Shown here: positions 16,637 to 26,142 of the stretch, in pieces
Layout: every line of letters starts with the position of its first letter
How positions within the stretch are numbered: the stretch's first letter is position 1
Assembly (NCBI GenBank): GCA_963716395.1
Contig: OY970309.1
Coordinates: forward strand, 288,001 to 352,000
Direction of reading: 5' to 3'
Origin: an uncultured Fibrobacteria bacterium
Lineage (GTDB): Bacteria > Fibrobacterota > Fibrobacteria > UBA11236
Length of the DNA: 64,000 nucleotides
Notes under the pieces: model-generated
Seen by the model: the letters and a program-made list of their open reading frames with translations, nothing else
What the model was told of the DNA's origin: nothing
Database searches by the model: none
Program-made: the position numbers and the translations under genes

Positions 16637-16652
16637 TGGCACTTCGTTTGCT
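16637..16652 (+). promoter_or_regulatory. Sigma-54 (-24/-12) promoter of the nrt-moco operon
   Basis: TGGCAC-TTCGT-TTGCT matches TGGCAC-N5-TTGC(A/T), upstream of a nitrogen-uptake operon. Confidence 0.85.
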
Positions 16653-16676
16653 TTTCCCTCTGGTTGTTCACGTTAC

Positions 16677-16779
16677 CCAACCGAACCCGGTCCGCCCGGC
16701 CCTTTGGACATTTGCGTAGTGATTTTCGGGCCGTGGCAGTAGTGAACGGGTCTTGCCGATGGGGCGGGGAGGCCGGTTT
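16677..16779 (+). other. Conserved two-block leader element, copy 1 (candidate cis-regulatory RNA)
   Basis: Block A 16677-16710 and block B 16754-16779 resemble 26055-26089 and 26117-26142. Confidence 0.55.
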
Positions 16780-16847
16780 GATTCTGTCGCTTCCTCCGAT
16801 TTTGCTGCGCCTGAGTAGGTCCACCGCATGGGTTCGCAGGAGGTATC

Positions 16848-18203
16848 ATGTTTTCCCGCTTTACCACAAACTTGTCCATTGCCCGCGCAGCCGCATGGGC
16901 GGCTTCGATTCTCTGCTTGGTATTCGCCGCGCCGGCCGGGGCGAAAGCCGCTTTGGAAAAAGAAGACCTTACCTTCGGGTTCATCAAGCTCACCGATTGC
17001 GCCCCCTTGGTCATCGCCAAAGAGAAAGGTTTTTTCCAGGATGAAGGCCTGTATGTGACGCTGCAAGCCCAGGCCAATTGGAAGGTGCTGCTCGACCGCG
17101 TCATCGACGGTTCGCTGGACGGGGCGCATATGCTGGCAGGCCAGCCCATCGGCGCCACCATCGGCATCGGCACCAAGGCCGACATCGTCACCGCGCTGAC
17201 GCTCGACCTCAACGGCAACGCCATCACCGTTTCCAACGCGGTGTGGAAACAGATGAAGCCCCATGTGGCGATGCGCGACGGCAAACCCGTGCACCCCATT
17301 TCCGCGGCCGCCCTGAAACCCGTGGTCATGCAATACAAGAACGAAGGCAAGCAATTCAACATGGGCATGGTCTTTCCGGTCTCAACGCACAATTATGAAA
17401 TCCGCTACTGGCTCGCCGCGGGTGGATTGAATCCCGGACTCTACACCCCCGACGATAACACCGGCATGACGGGCGCCGATGTGTTGCTTTCGGTGACTCC
17501 GCCGCCGCAAATGCCCGCCACGCTGGAGGCCGGCACCATTTACGGCTATTGCGTCGGAGAACCCTGGAATCAGCAGGCCGTGTTCAAAGGCATCGGGGTT
17601 CCGGTGGTCACCGACTACGAAATCTACCGGAACAAGGCCGAGAAGGTGTTCGGGGTGACCCGGGCCTGGGCCGAGAAATATCCCAACACCCACGTGGCGG
17701 TGATCAAGGCGCTCATCCGCGCCTGCCAATGGCTTGATGCCGACAACGGCAAGAACCGCAAAGAGGCGGTGGGTATCCTTTCGCGGCCGGAATACGTGGG
17801 CGCCGACTCCGCCGTGATCGCCAACAGCATGACCGGCACCTTCGAATTCGAGAAGGGCGACAAACGGTCTTTTCCCGATTTCAACGTCTTTTTCCGCTAC
17901 CACGCGACCTATCCGTATTACAGCGACTGCATCTGGTTCCTGACGCAAATGCGCCGCTGGGGCCAGATTCCGAAAAGCCAACCGGATGCCTGGTATCAGG
18001 CCGTTGCGAAGAAGGTGTATCTCCCCGACGTGTGGCGCAAAGCGGCCGAAGAATTGGTGGCGGAAAAAAAACTGGACCCGTCTGCCATTCCGGTCACCGA
18101 CGGCTACAAGCCGCCAACCACCGACTTCATCGACGGGAAGAAATACGACGGACGCCAACCGCTGGAATATCTGGCATCCTTTAAAATCGGTAACCGGGAT
18201 TGA
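16848..18203 (+). CDS. nrtA: NrtA/CmpA-family nitrate ABC substrate-binding protein
   Basis: [66 protein letters not shown]. Confidence 0.95.
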
Positions 18204-18207
18204 CGCG

Positions 18208-19230
18208 ATGAAACGGAAACTGATTCGCTTTCTGTCCCTGCTGGGAATGACTTGGCTCATTCCCCTGCTGCGCCTGGCGTGGAAGGAAAATCCGCGGCAA
18301 CAAGTGCGGGAATTGCGCACCACCTTGGCCGTGCCGCTCCTGGCCATCGCCCTCTTCCTGGGGCTGTGGTCGGTGTTGGCCCGGCAAATCCACACCAGCT
18401 TGGGAACCTTGCCCGGCCCGCAAAGCGTTCTGGTCGAGTTCAAAGTTTTGCTGCGCGAGCACGCCGAAGAACGCGCCCGAGCTCGGGCTTTTTACCGCGA
18501 ACAGGAGCAACGCATCGCGGCGCAATTGGCCGCCGATCCCCATGCCGAAGTCAGGCGGCACGCCTACACGGGCGCGCCGACCTTCATCGACCAGATCGAA
18601 ACCAGCCTCAAAACCGTGTTCGCGGGATTTTTAATCGCTTCCCTGATAGCCATACCCGTGGGACTTTTCTGCGGCATGAGCCGGACCTGCATGAACGCGT
18701 TAAATCCGTTGATCCAGATTTTCAAACCGGTATCGCCCTTGGCCTGGCTTCCCATCGTCACCATGGTCGTCAGCGCCGCATACGCCACGCAAAACGGGCT
18801 TTTTCCCAAGTGCTTTGTGATTTCGGCCATCACGGTTTCGCTGTGTTCGCTTTGGCCCAGCATCATGAATACGGCCCTGGGCGTGGCTTCGGTGGACAAG
18901 GATTATCTCAACGTCGCCCGGGTTTTGAAATTGAGCTGGTCCACCCGGGTGGTGAAAATCCTGCTGCCGGCTTCGTTGCCGCTCATGTTCACCGGCCTGC
19001 GCATTTCCCTGGGCGTGGGCTGGATGGTGCTCATCGCCGCGGAAATGCTGGCCCAGAATCCCGGGCTGGGAAAATTCGTGTGGGACGAATTTCAGAACGG
19101 CAGCAGCGATTCGCTGGCGCGCATCATGGTCGCGGTGTTCGCCATCGGGTTCATCGGCTTCGCGCTCGACCGCGTCATGGTCGTACTGCAGAAATGGGTC
19201 AGCTTTCAACCCGATGTCGCGGTGAATTGA
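18208..19230 (+). CDS. nrtB: Nitrate ABC permease with N-terminal extension
   Basis: [51 protein letters not shown]. Confidence 0.93.
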
Positions 19231-19243
19231 AGATCGGAGAGCC

Positions 19244-24574: not shown

Positions 24575-24575
24575 G

Positions 24576-25022
24576 TTGTTTCAACTGACCCGCGCGCCCT
24601 TGGACGCGGCGGCGCTGCGCGCGCGCTTGGCGCATCCGGATTGCGGCGCCTGCGTCGCTTTCGAAGGTTGGGTGCGCAACCGGAATGAAGGGCGCGCGGT
24701 TTTACGGCTGGAATACGAAGCTTACCCGGCGCTGGCCGTCAAAGAAGGCGAGCGCATTCTGCAAGAAGCGCTGCGAGATTTTCCGATTAAGGCCGCCCAT
24801 TGCGTGCACCGCCTGGGCTTGCTGGAAATCGGGGAAACCGCCGTGTGGATCGGAGCCGTGTCCCCCCATCGCCAGGCCGCCTTTGCCGCCTGCGAATGGC
24901 TGATCGCCGCGGTGAAACATCGGGTTCCGATCTGGAAGCGCGAACATTATGCCGACGGCGGATGCGAATGGATTCTATGCGCGCATGATGCCGATCACGC
25001 CGACCATGCTGCCGCGCACTAG
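24576..25022 (+). CDS. moaE: Molybdopterin synthase catalytic subunit
   Basis: GACVAFEGWVRN, LEYEAY, HRLG, HRQAAF, PIWKRE. Confidence 0.96.
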   Translation: MFQLTRAPLDAAALRARLAHPDCGACVAFEGWVRNRNEGRAVLRLEYEAYPALAVKEGERILQEALRDFPIKAAHCVHRLGLLEIGETAVWIGAVSPHRQAAFAACEWLIAAVKHRVPIWKREHYADGGCEWILCAHDADHADHAAAH

Positions 25023-25046
25023 CTTAAGGCTAAGACGCAGCGGGAA

Positions 25047-25790
25047 TTGACGGTGGAATTAGCGCATCCCATTTTGACGTCCGGCGCCGTCCTCGTCATC
25101 GCTTTTCTCTACTCGTCCGTCGGCCATGCCGGAGCCTCCGGTTATATCGCCGCACTCACCTTGCTGGGATTTTCCACGGCCTTCATCAAGCCCACGGCCC
25201 TGACCCTCAACATTCTGGTGGCGGTCATCGGCACCTGGCAGTTCTGGCGGGCCGGCCATTTTTCTTGGAAGCTGTTCTGGCCGTTCGCCGTGGCCTCCAT
25301 GCCGTGCGCCTTTGCGGGCGGATATTTGCAACTTCCCTCCGTTTGGTTTCGGCCGCTGGTGGGCGCGGTACTGTGGTTTTCGTCGCTGCGATTTTTTCTC
25401 AGCCCAAACGACCCTCCGCACATCAAACCGCCCGGAATCGGCCTGGCCATGGGAACCGGAGGCGGCCTCGGTTTTCTGGCCGGCCTCACCGGCACCGGCG
25501 GAGGAATTTTCCTGACGCCGCTGTTGTTGTTATGCCGCTGGGCCCGAACGCGCAATGCGGCCGCCGTCTCGGCATTGTTTATCCTGGTGAATTCCAGCAC
25601 CGGCCTGTTGGGCTATGTCGGCAGCGGCCGGCGCCTTCCCCACCTCACCTTGACCCTGGCCGTGGCGGCGGCCGCGGGAGGCTTCGCCGGATCCTATTGC
25701 GGGAGCCGACGCTTCCCGGTGCGCACCGTGCGAATTTTACTGGCCTCGGTTCTGGTCATCGCCGGTGCCAAATTGATGTTCACACCGTAA
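25047..25790 (+). CDS. TauE/SafE-family membrane transporter
   Basis: SSVGHAGASGY and GLTGTGGGIFLTP repeats, multiple TM segments. Confidence 0.9.
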   Translation: MTVELAHPILTSGAVLVIAFLYSSVGHAGASGYIAALTLLGFSTAFIKPTALTLNILVAVIGTWQFWRAGHFSWKLFWPFAVASMPCAFAGGYLQLPSVWFRPLVGAVLWFSSLRFFLSPNDPPHIKPPGIGLAMGTGGGLGFLAGLTGTGGGIFLTPLLLLCRWARTRNAAAVSALFILVNSSTGLLGYVGSGRRLPHLTLTLAVAAAAGGFAGSYCGSRRFPVRTVRILLASVLVIAGAKLMFTP

Positions 25791-25985
25791 AGGTGGTCGG
25801 CCGGTCCATCTCCAAAAAAATCCTGGCCCTGTTGTCAGCCTGGGTTAACACGCAGCCGACAATTCCTTTCACTCGACCCGAATTCTACCGGGAATGTGCT
25901 GGATAATGAATCTTTAGTGCTTTCTCGTCCTGCAAAATTCAGTACAAATCGGCCTCCGATAGCGCGGTGATTCGCGCCGGTTTAC

Positions 25986-26000
25986 TGGTACGCCTCTTGC
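25986..26000 (+). promoter_or_regulatory. Sigma-54 (-24/-12) promoter of the nitrate reductase operon
   Basis: TGGTAC-GCCTC-TTGC with correct GG-N10-GC spacing, in a ~500 bp intergenic gap. Confidence 0.75.
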
Positions 26001-26054
26001 GCTCTATCCAAGCAGTTCAAGTCGTTGTTTGAAGCCCTGCTTTAAACGAAACGG

Positions 26055-26142
26055 CCAACCGCATACCGGTCTGTCCGGGCCTTTGGTCAACCTGGTCAAA
26101 TTATTACGCCATGGGATGCCGAGGGTTCGGGTATGACGGTTT
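26055..26142 (+). other. Conserved two-block leader element, copy 2 (candidate cis-regulatory RNA)
   Basis: Block A CCAACCGCATACCGGTCTGTCCGGGCCTTTGGTCA and block B TGCCGAGGGTTCGGGTATGACGGTTT are mutually complementary with G-U pairs. Confidence 0.55.

Follow-up and report, generated by a model that had tools for sequence, protein, structure and literature searches.

Two shared sequence blocks in the nitrate leaders of the window

In the genome of an uncultured Fibrobacteria bacterium, two sigma-54-type promoters 9.3 kb apart each precede a long untranslated leader and a set of genes for nitrate assimilation; the locus raises the question whether the two sequence blocks that the leaders share, A and B, form a regulatory element that acts as RNA. 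The initial annotation of the window (the whole 64,000-nucleotide stretch that was analysed, from contig OY970309.1 of assembly GCA_963716395.1) had proposed that they do, that is, that mutually exclusive folds of the two blocks constitute a cis-acting RNA switch or protein-binding element. By direct reading, both sigma-54 boxes and both copies of block A (16677-16710 and 26055-26089) are where that annotation had placed them; the same is true of block B (16754-16779 and 26117-26142), for which an independent count also gives 20 of 26 identical positions. The spacers between the blocks are 43 and 27 nt long, as described; MAFFT, which aligns both blocks between the two leaders, also aligns part of the spacer, with a 15-nt gap. 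The features of the two leaders and their genes are as follows.

16637..16651, + strand: sigma-54-type -24/-12 box of leader 1, TGGCAC-N5-TTGC (direct reading)
16677..16707, + strand: block A core, copy 1, CCAAC-CGAAC-CCGG(16687-16690)-UCCGC-CCGG(16696-16699)-CCC-UUUGG (model R1, 49.8 bits, E 1.8e-9 per genome)
16754..16779, + strand: block B, copy 1, with the hairpin CCG-AUGGGG-CGG (16756-16767); ends GGUUU, then GAUUCU (reading and complementarity to block A)
16848..25790, + strand: transcription unit 1 (Pfam)
16848-18203, + strand: NrtA-like binding protein, unit 1 (Pfam)
19244-20938, + strand: two ABC ATPases, unit 1 (Pfam)
20999-25022, + strand: MoeA, MoaA, MoaC, a ThiS/MoaD-like protein and MoaE, unit 1 (Pfam)
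25047-25790, + strand: TauE, unit 1 (Pfam)
25986..26000, + strand: sigma-54-type box of leader 2, TGGTAC-N5-TTGC (direct reading)
26023..26053, + strand: variable hairpin P0 of leader 2, ending 1 nt before the CCAAC of copy 2
26055..26086, + strand: block A core, copy 2, CCAAC-CGCAUA-CCGG-UCUGU-CCGG-GCC-UUUGG (model R1, 46.1 bits, E 1.8e-8)
26117..26142, + strand: block B, copy 2, about 22 positions of which pair with block A, with many G-U pairs; ends GGUUU, then ACAUGC (minimum-energy fold)
26166..26198, + strand: second hairpin of leader 2, CAUCA..CGGG-UUAUU-CCCG-UGAUG, then UGUUUGUU (reading and minimum-energy fold)
26234..30613, + strand: transcription unit 2, with a fusion of FeS (DmsB-like) and DmsC-like parts as its first gene (Pfam)
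27909-30131, + strand: NasA/NasC-type molybdoenzyme, unit 2 (Pfam)
29873-30613, + strand: NarM, unit 2 (Pfam)

The open reading frame at 18252-19247, between nrtA and the ATPases, matches no Pfam family. The true start of unit 2 is probably the ATG at 26247 or 26291, because homology to the protein of a relative begins at residue 44.

The block A core and its accessory structures in relatives

Block A corresponds to a conserved core of ~31 nt (CCAAC..CCGG-UCCGY-CCGG..UUUGG) with the layout CCAAC, YG plus 3-5 variable nt, CCGG-UCCGY-CCGG, SCY and UUUGG. Using a covariance model of the core (R1) and a threshold of E<0.001 per genome, we found it in 26 of the 32 genomes of this Fibrobacterota family (24 of 30 without this genome and the unpublished G008). 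Outside the family, the covariance model had matches in just 3 of the 119 other genomes that represent the class, all of them marginal (E about 0.008), and the strict pattern was absent from the 264 genomes that represent the other families of the phylum. When ~185,000 species genomes were scanned by pattern, the matches with both a sigma-54 box and CCAAYYG were all Fibrobacter-type MAGs or a few oddly labelled records. Conservation of block A so far beyond this locus argues against a simple local promoter duplication.

The core is associated with one pathway. A nitrate-pathway gene lies downstream on the same strand in 48 of the 49 distinct leaders, the locus of the 49th being too short to tell; the gene encodes NirA (21 leaders), NrtA (18), NarK (5), FNT (2), a porin (1) or the FeS-DmsC fusion (1). 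All 49 leaders have the same type of sigma-54 box, the presence of which upstream was the criterion by which they were retained. At the same threshold (E<0.001), the core occurs in 26 of the 28 family genomes that bear NirA and in none of the four that lack it. This genome (99.2% complete, one contig) has four copies, one ahead of each nitrate/nitrite assimilation unit, so that the whole pathway is covered; two of them are outside the window and had been overlooked. The strict patterns for block A and block B each match only the two window sites in the 3.75-Mb genome, so neither is a dispersed repeat; we therefore rejected a REP/MITE-like element, all four copies of the core being in leaders of nitrate/nitrite genes. 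We conclude that block A represents, in this genome, a leader element of the whole family that is found ahead of essentially every nitrate/nitrite assimilation unit.

As had been noticed from the window, block A can fold alone (outer CCAA/UUGG, inner CCGG/CCGG, 5-nt loop), with predicted energies of -8.7 kcal/mol for copy 1 and -9.4 kcal/mol for copy 2. The pentaloop is present in all full-length distinct aligned sequences except one, which has a 4-nt loop. In the alignment 93.9% of the core cells pair, but a two-sided change is seen in only one of the nine pairs, a result equalled by 36 of 500 shuffles; also, the bases that would close the CCGG hairpin do not pair in 13 of the 37 distinct sequences. 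Because the core barely covaries and this closing pair is unpaired in those 13, the fold of the core stays predicted. In two leaders GCAA/UUGC replaces CCAA/UUGG as the outer pair; in leader L023, the partner on the Shine-Dalgarno side, GCAAAAGGG, changes together with it.

The surroundings of the core carry more structure. In the long-form leaders of relatives, ~90-120 nt of hairpins are inserted between CCAACUGA and the CCGG hairpin, and 14 of the 50 predicted pairs in the insert are compensatory among the 11 long leaders that could be aligned. Among short leaders that have 25 nt or more ahead of CCAAC, 11 of 11 carry a hairpin adjoining it; the sequences of these hairpins are unrelated (median z -2.68). 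These two features, the structured inserts with their 14 compensatory pairs and the variable hairpin adjoining CCAAC, support the view that the element acts at the level of RNA. Its placement can be read in the same leaders: the distance from promoter to core ranges ~five-fold, from about 35 to about 175 nt, and that to the start codon varies less, with the end of the core 25-66 nt upstream of it in most relatives. The orientation of the core is always that of the gene, and we estimate that it lies 14-65 nt or more from the 5' end of the transcript. An insert hairpin in 10 of the 11 aligned long forms contains CGGA, which is complementary to the invariant core loop; 80.7% of the cells in this loop/CGGA contact pair, vs 12-43% if the partner is slid by 1-3 columns, and no covariation was found for the contact in the aligned long forms. 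Two of the three other long forms have GACGG in their inserts (read by eye).

Block B and a proposed leader switch

In both window copies the complementarity of block B to block A exceeds chance, as expected from the pairing that had been proposed: A1:B1 is predicted at -34.7 kcal/mol (z -2.9; equalled by 10 of 1000 shuffles of B), whereas A2:B2 comes to -28.8 kcal/mol (z -4.35; 0 of 1000). The cross-pairing A2:B1 (-31.3 kcal/mol) is as good as A2:B2. In copy 2 the minimum-energy fold uses A:B (-40.3 kcal/mol, vs -29.0 kcal/mol with block A kept closed), and in copy 1 it contains neither the canonical fold of block A nor A:B, in agreement with the original description of a pairing that is extensive in copy 2 and weaker in copy 1; over its full length, leader 1 does not fold better than its shuffles (z -0.61). 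Reading the two copies position by position, we found one A:B position that changes on both sides with the pair kept (C-G to G-U). Block B is absent from all genomes of relatives that were searched, so the two-block design appears to be private to this genome and the case for A:B rests on two paralogous copies. The proposal of a cis-acting RNA element is partly supported, by the distribution of block A in the family, by its support at the RNA level and by the A:B complementarity; it has to be revised as regards the restriction of block B to this genome and the covariation of the core, which is seen in a single pair.

The A:B helix is strong, but its loop is 27-43 nt and its U-run has only 3 U followed by mixed bases; a terminator scan flagged nothing at block B in either leader. 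The second hairpin of leader 2 (26166-26198), with the UGUUUGUU that follows it, looks like a terminator and was also unflagged by the scan.

We infer switching, signal, factor and termination alike, and our tentative preference, which we hold with less than even confidence, is for an undescribed leader switch in which block A is held by a factor acting in trans, probably a protein of neither the ANTAR nor the CAT type, and block B is the competitor strand. The core would be transcribed from the sigma-54 promoters, and block A would be the sensing hairpin of the cis-acting switch, supplementing the sigma-54 control by nitrogen limitation with a signal specific to the pathway, for which nitrate or nitrite is the likeliest candidate. 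With the block A hairpin closed by CCAA:UUGG and held by the factor, block B would remain free and the operon would be read; with block A unheld, block B, a lineage-specific strand of the two window leaders, would unzip it and form with it a helix of ~21 bp that has a U-rich stretch behind it, and the transcript would be stopped or silenced in the manner of an attenuator. In relatives, the core is combined with different output modules; in the nirA leaders of genus 1, for instance, its 3' arm is predicted to pair around the start codon, although such pairing is not general (median z -0.72; p<=0.05 in 8 of 49 leaders).

RAT elements, the targets of BglG, SacY and LicT, are single imperfect hairpins of ~30 nt, highly conserved in sequence and with internal loops, that overlap a terminator on its 5' strand. 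Our proposal gives blocks A and B this design, although the sequence and the regulated pathway differ and the CAT_RBD antiterminator domain (PF03123) was not found in this genome (0 of 1; controls matched in 4 of 14 genomes).

Candidate readers and alternative explanations

The leaders belong to no Rfam family, in agreement with the initial annotation, which recognised no riboswitch: at the gathering score, Rfam 15 (with the Moco, glutamine, narK and NMT1 motifs, insofar as it contains them) has no match in the whole window and none across 11 loci of relatives, long forms included, and at E<=10 leader 1 has an irrelevant nuoG match upstream of its promoter and leader 2 has none. The same annotation saw no ANTAR-type hexaloops. 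There is in fact one 3-bp hairpin in each block B with a hexaloop that has A at position 1 and G at position 4 (CCG-AUGGGG-CGG at 16756-16767, CCG-AGGGUU-CGG at 26119-26130); there is only one per leader. Of the two leaders of this genome outside the window, copy 3 has one weak hairpin of this kind and copy 4 has none. According to PMC12591593, the target of NasR is two hairpins, each with such a hexaloop; as portrayed there, the nasF leader of Klebsiella oxytoca, read by NasR (a one-component antiterminator with NIT and ANTAR domains), resembles our proposal in its sigma-54/NtrC promoter for nitrogen limitation, in the nitrate/nitrite-specific control that its leader RNA adds to an assimilation operon, and in the competition of a hairpin with a terminator. 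It differs in that here a pentaloop UCCGY on a fixed CCGG stem takes the place of the two hexaloop hairpins. An antitermination leader of the ordinary NasR/NasT (ANTAR) kind, known from Klebsiella, Pseudomonas, Azotobacter and Paracoccus, would have the same logic as these leaders, with nitrate assimilation genes behind a long leader and a sigma-54 promoter, and could use the single hexaloop hairpin in both copies of block B; however, the block A loop is a pentaloop, and the ANTAR domain (PF03861) is found in 0 of 32 family genomes, with positive-control matches for the same search in two genomes, of Azotobacter and Rahnella. A crude six-frame search for the ANTAR motif gave no convincing match, 17 short response-regulator frames read by eye have no ANTAR tail and look OmpR-type or single-domain, and the NIT domain was not found in this genome, with a positive control that also had no match. 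We regard the ordinary ANTAR leader as refuted as far as sequence can tell, and give it hardly any weight.

The NasS-NasT systems of Paracoccus, Azotobacter and Pseudomonas (nasA/nirBD leaders; compare PMC3795266 and PMC10783516) are likewise reported to control nitrate assimilation through a leader and, like this cluster, to encode a cytoplasmic NrtA-like nitrate/nitrite-binding protein; NasT, the RNA-binding ANTAR partner, is absent here. The only regulator-like protein kept in the clusters is the NrtA-like one, which is closest to the nitrate-binding C-terminal regulatory domain of NrtC/CmpC (E 1.5e-61); its role may be limited to regulation of transport.

The conserved 21-mer CCGGTCCGYCCGGSCYTTTGG contains a partial palindrome (CCGG-N5-CCGG), and it is the sequence that is conserved and not the pairing, as would be expected if a repressor or activator bound it as a DNA operator, downstream of the sigma-54 promoter; this is highly improbable, given that the distance to the promoter varies far more than that to the start codon, that the orientation always follows the gene, that long forms split the CCAAC half from the rest by ~90-120 bp of covarying RNA hairpins, and that the A:B pairing relies on G-U pairs. 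The loop and stem of block A (GGUCCGY) might instead be the target of a small RNA with ACGGAC, a partner that the long forms would have captured in cis in their CGGA-containing loops (or GACGG); the complementary stretch is only 4-7 nt and does not covary, and we consider this very unlikely. Somewhat less improbable, though still quite unlikely, is a constitutive structural module that senses nothing (mRNA protection, a ribosome standby site or processing), with all regulation at the sigma-54 promoter: the hairpin is invariant, no alternative fold can be demonstrated in most relatives, and a core that ends 25-66 nt before the start codon suits an element for translation or stability; against this, the element is confined to one pathway rather than general to sigma-54 or highly expressed genes, it lies inside the transcript and not at its 5' end, and the significant A:B complementarity in both window copies would have no role.

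A riboswitch is a close contender, albeit one that we judge rather unlikely. Block A would be the aptamer, with the core (and a docking accessory domain in the long forms) binding a small molecule, either nitrate/nitrite via a bound metal ion or a metabolite of nitrogen status, and binding would decide between the closed hairpin and the competing helix. The leaders have features by which riboswitch candidates are usually nominated: one coherent pathway, several copies per genome, a single core that is combined with varied output modules, and structured domains that are optional and always occupy the same junction; in favour are also the loop-complementary CGGA of the insert hairpins and the lack of a regulator gene of known RNA-binding type (ANTAR 0 of 32 genomes, CAT_RBD 0 of 1). 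The preQ1-I, guanidine-III and Moco RNA motifs likewise combine a small core with one pathway, several copies per genome, alternative platforms and optional stems; unlike these small classes, the leaders here match no Rfam family, their stems do not covary and their junction is variable, and a Moco motif would not account for control of nirA, narK, nirC and the porin. The core is tiny, the nucleotides beside its hairpin vary freely in sequence and length (3-5 nt), the loop-loop contact lacks covariation, and stems that do not covary fit base-specific reading by a protein, or double use of each base, better than they fit a ligand pocket.

We are aware of no nitrate- or nitrite-binding RNA, and a literature search found none. 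The specific possibility that the core of block A serves as aptamer in a new class of riboswitches sensing nitrate/nitrite directly, with the long-form inserts as docking domains that tune it, is one that we consider unlikely; if it is true, nitrogen oxyanions would have their first RNA sensor, and RNA would take over from the protein layer of NasR/NasT across a whole bacterial family.

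Sigma-54 leaders of the window

The initial annotation described two sigma-54 boxes, each followed by an untranslated leader that contains the same two blocks: block A, the core CCAAC..CCGG-UCCGY-CCGG..UUUGG, and block B, a downstream strand complementary to block A. Reading the sequence, we confirmed both boxes and all four blocks:

16637-16651, + strand: sigma-54-type box of leader 1, TGGCAC-N5-TTGC
16677-16710, + strand: block A, copy 1
16754-16779, + strand: block B, copy 1
25986-26000, + strand: sigma-54-type box of leader 2, TGGTAC-N5-TTGC
26055-26089, + strand: block A, copy 2
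26117-26142, + strand: block B, copy 2

A recount by hand gives 20 of 26 identical positions between the block B copies, and the spacers between the blocks are 43 and 27 nt, both as annotated; of the assertion that the spacers are much less similar, the better preservation of the blocks stands, but MAFFT also aligns part of the spacer. Strict patterns for block A and for block B each find two sites in the 3.75-Mb genome of the window (G000), that is, the window copies. At 16630-16651 a terminator scan flags GCAAACG..CGTTTGC followed by TTTTCC; here the region of the sigma-54 box simply folds back on itself, and we regard the flag as a scan artefact.

Block A can fold alone, as proposed (−8.7 kcal/mol for copy 1, −9.4 kcal/mol for copy 2). 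The alternative A:B pairing, said to be extensive in copy 2 and weaker in copy 1, is indeed the minimum-energy fold in copy 2 only (−40.3 kcal/mol vs −29.0 kcal/mol with block A closed); the minimum-energy fold of copy 1 is a different one. The A1:B1 duplex has an energy of −34.7 kcal/mol (z −2.9; 10 of 1000 shuffles equally good) and the A2:B2 duplex one of −28.8 kcal/mol (z −4.35; 0 of 1000). Leader 2 as a whole folds better than its shuffles (z −2.59), and whole leader 1 has no advantage over its own (z −0.61). When the two A:B helices are compared position by position, one double-sided change keeps the pair (C-G to G-U) and several one-sided changes preserve or improve pairing. Both helices terminate in GGUUU; the terminator scan flags nothing at block B in either copy. 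Leader 2 also contains, 3′ of block B, a second hairpin with a U-rich tail (UGUUUGUU, 26166-26198) that could be a further terminator, and in leader 1 CUUCCUCC (16794-16801) is complementary to the Shine-Dalgarno sequence AGGAGG (16836-16842), about 35 nt downstream of it, and could be a separate translational mask.

The unit behind leader 1 encodes an NrtA-like binding protein, two ABC ATPases, MoeA, MoaA, MoaC, a MoaD-like protein, MoaE and TauE. The molybdenum-cofactor genes and the TauE-type exporter gene (20999-25790) come after the nitrate ABC transporter genes, co-oriented with them and separated by short gaps, so they probably share the sigma-54 promoter and leader of those genes. Leader 2 precedes genes for a DmsB/DmsC-like fusion, a NasA/NasC-type molybdoenzyme and NarM; the true start of the first of these is probably ATG 26247 or 26291. 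A 572-aa ORF after this nitrate reductase operon matches no family; its N-terminus resembles a signal peptide, and it seems to be unrelated. Elsewhere in the window (46673-50456, − strand), genes for a ClpC-type ATPase and a McsB-type guanido kinase lie beside BamA, OmpH and LpxC/LpxA-type genes, which gives lineage context only.

Distribution and gene context of the two blocks

When leader 1 is used as a BLAST query against the 31 other genomes of the Fibrobacterota family, only the block A stretch is matched, in 13 of them. The 21-mer CCGGTCYGYCCGGSCCTTTGG, with at most one mismatch, is present in 22 of the 31 and in 0 of 264 genomes from the phylum's other families. A covariance model of the core, built from 25 short forms (cores without a hairpin insert), matches G000 and 25 of the 31 other family genomes at E<0.001 (24 of 30 when the unpublished genome G008 is set aside), with a weak match in one more; the family genomes are related, so these counts are of non-independent events. 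In a sample of the class outside the family, 3 of 119 genomes have marginal matches (E ~0.008), the number expected by chance. A looser pattern was run on ~185,000 species genomes: all matches with a sigma-54 box and CCAAYYG come from MAG records titled Fibrobacteres, Fibrobacteria or Fibrobacterota, apart from a few with odd labels that coincide with family genomes, and all remaining matches are terminator-like sequences or coding DNA. Neither the window nor the loci of 11 relatives have an Rfam 15 match at the gathering score, and nothing relevant appears at E≤10 on both window leaders, so the check recommended in the initial annotation returned no known RNA family; searches of open-access papers turned up nothing on the motif. 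G008 enters the counts of model matches, class sample, NirA and ANTAR; no sequence-level statement rests on it.

The gene context was collected for 49 distinct leaders with a sigma-54 box (four from G000, G008 excluded), with identities checked on representatives using Pfam or NCBIfam. A nitrate-pathway gene lies downstream on the same strand in 48 of them (NirA 21, NrtA 18, NarK 5, FNT 2, porin 1, FeS-DmsC 1); the locus of the 49th is too short to show the downstream gene. NirA is encoded by 28 of the 32 family genomes, and 26 of those 28 carry the motif; the two others are G013, whose copy of the gene runs into a contig end, and G020. In the four genomes that lack NirA, nothing matches at E<0.001. 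G000 carries two copies in addition to those in the window:

~G000:C1:250610-250754: copy 3, long form (core with a hairpin insert), before an Alginate_exp-type porin gene
G000:C1:244625-244669: copy 4, short form, before an operon for FNT, NirA, a CysJ-like and an NrtC-CTD-like protein

With four copies in G000, all before nitrate or nitrite genes, block A does not behave like a REP/MITE-like repeat scattered over unrelated loci. Two side observations concern narK. In one narK leader (L037, G004:C60), the AUG after GGAGUAUGCCCA opens a ~66-codon ORF that may be translationally coupled to narK, the stop overlapping the narK start (AUGA). In two relatives a gene beside narK encodes a PP2C phosphatase fused to a Ser/Thr kinase (L044:9034-10899; L045:11252-12988), which hints at post-translational control of nitrate uptake.

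The annotated two-block element thus holds family-wide for block A, and block B is found only in G000. The B pattern has matches in four other family genomes, one of them G008; the three that were read (L139, L140, L142) are coding-looking DNA with no block A. Metagenomes scanned for block A with the start of B behind it yielded a single match, inside an ABC permease gene, that we take as chance. As far as these sequences indicate, block B is therefore private to G000; leaders 1 and 2 are probably paralogues.

Anatomy and outputs of the leader

The consensus order is a sigma-54 box, 20-65 nt, CCAAY-YG, 3-5 variable nt, CCGG-UCCGY-CCGG, SCY and UUUGG; transcription starts were estimated from the usual spacing between a sigma-54 promoter and its start. 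Set against the four findings given below, the core itself hardly covaries: in its alignment 93.9% of cells pair and only one pair changes on both sides (CCAA/UUGG to GCAA/UUGC, in L023 and one other leader), and in 13 of 37 distinct sequences the bases that would close the CCGG stem do not pair.

Four findings point to action as RNA. The long forms, 14 leaders (11 genus-3 nrtA leaders, two from genus-1 genomes other than G000, and G000 copy 3), have ~90-120 nt of hairpins, some with GNRA-type loops, inserted between CCAACUGA and the CCGG hairpin, and in the 11 that can be aligned 14 of 50 predicted insert pairs have compensatory changes. Wherever a short leader leaves 25 nt or more from the estimated start to CCAAC, a hairpin of unrelated sequence ends 0-3 nt before CCAAC (11 of 11 such leaders; median z −2.68). 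In window copy 2 this is:

26023-26053: upstream hairpin of leader 2

Block A is always oriented as the gene, and in relatives the distance from core to start codon is fairly constant (25-66 nt in most), that from promoter to core varying ~5-fold. The A2:B2 helix, finally, depends on many G-U pairs.

A kissing contact between the insert loop and the core loop was considered and not retained: an insert hairpin loop with CGGA, complementary to the core loop, occurs in 10 of the 11 aligned long forms, and 80.7% of cells would pair in this contact vs 12-43% when the partner is slid, but the aligned long forms contain no covariation in it. Separately, genus-3 nrtA leaders (L003, L008-L014, L016) contain a second conserved structured domain of ~130 nt, ~100-240 nt downstream of the core and before the real nrtA start (AAGGAG-N6-8-AUG), so that these leaders are ~500 nt long. 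It is a multi-stem junction closed by GCGG/CCGC with 16 of 62 predicted pairs compensatory; Rfam has no match on four loci that hold it (L003, L012, L013, L016).

The region between core and gene differs among leaders. The arm GGSCCUUUGG of genus-1 nirA leaders complements CCAAUGGCC, in which the start codon lies (z about −2 to −2.8). As a general rule, masking of the start codon by the 3′ arm is not supported: the median z over the 49 leaders is −0.72, with p≤0.05 in 8, the start codons used for genus-3 nrtA leaders in this test being other than the true gene starts; pairing is strong only in genus-1 nirA leaders, L023 and L026. L023 offers the strongest individual hint that the arm may alternate between partners on its 5′ and 3′ sides: there, GCAAAAGGG on the Shine-Dalgarno side fits the arm in its changed form, CCCUUUUGC (z −2.7). 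Judged by eye, the Shine-Dalgarno sequence of genus-3 nirA leaders seems to be covered by a separate hairpin; genus-3 nrtA leaders have an invariant helix, UUGGACAUAC/GUAUGCCCAA, with the second domain after it. G000 is the outlier, with 90-160 nt from core to start codon, plus block B.

Candidate readers and mechanism

In well-studied bacteria nitrate assimilation is controlled in two layers: sigma-54/NtrC responds to nitrogen shortage, and an ANTAR protein that acts on the leader RNA signals nitrate or nitrite. The Fibrobacterota family keeps the sigma-54 and leader layers, yet its RNA element is unrelated and ANTAR proteins are missing, so either an RNA-binding regulator of a new kind or a new riboswitch should await discovery.

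An ANTAR target is defined, in excerpts of PMC12591593, by two hexaloop hairpins with A1 and G4. The initial annotation had seen no such hexaloop; this needs correction, as each block B carries one 3-bp hairpin with an A1/G4 hexaloop. The four G000 leaders nevertheless have at most one each, and the conserved hairpin has a pentaloop. No ANTAR domain (PF03861) was found in any of the 32 family genomes by a search that was positive in two control genomes, so an ANTAR-type reading is excluded as far as sequence allows. By eye, none of 17 short response-regulator ORFs has an ANTAR-like tail. CAT_RBD, the RNA-binding domain of BglG/SacY, was not found in G000 (controls positive), and a search of G000 for NIT gave no match, as did its control.

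The only regulator-like protein kept in the nitrate clusters is a cytoplasmic NrtA-like (NMT1_2) protein of 330-378 aa without signal peptide, encoded by every cluster examined:

L042:5235-6371 (= G000:C1:249235-250371): NrtA-like cytoplasmic protein
L043:8287-9327 and 10984-11976: NrtA-like cytoplasmic proteins
L044:6710-7801: NrtA-like cytoplasmic protein
L045:8432-9469: NrtA-like cytoplasmic protein

By analogy with NasS, which senses nitrate for its partner NasT (excerpts of PMC3795266), this protein could sense nitrate for a partner; it could equally regulate transport only. Among solved structures it is closest to the nitrate-binding C-terminal regulatory domains of cyanobacterial NrtC/CmpC (E 1.5e-61), which makes a role in transport no less likely, and we did not retain it as a NasS-like regulator. 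The window's own NrtC/D-like ATPases lack that domain.

We tentatively favor, at somewhat less than even confidence, a factor-dependent switch in the leader. The closed block A hairpin would be the form that is read, and in G000 block B would compete with it as a strand of an attenuator-like helix. Nitrate or nitrite is the probable signal, and the factor would probably be a protein from a class so far unconnected with RNA. A close rival, which we consider rather unlikely, is that block A binds its signal directly as a riboswitch; the coherent pathway, several copies per genome, modular outputs, optional docking-like domains and missing regulator gene would all suit it, but the invariant stems and loop beside a freely varying junction fit base-specific reading, or double use of the bases, better than a ligand pocket. 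Less likely than these are a constitutive structural role, pairing of block A with a trans-acting small RNA, and use of block A as a DNA operator.

Block A is a short RNA that is easily synthesised, so the question of the nitrate sensor can be tested in vitro without culturing the organism. It marks an entire regulon, that is, uptake systems, porin, nitrite reductase and nitrate reductase, and in G000 also molybdenum-cofactor synthesis, which makes it a usable marker when nitrate use is annotated in uncultured environmental Fibrobacterota.
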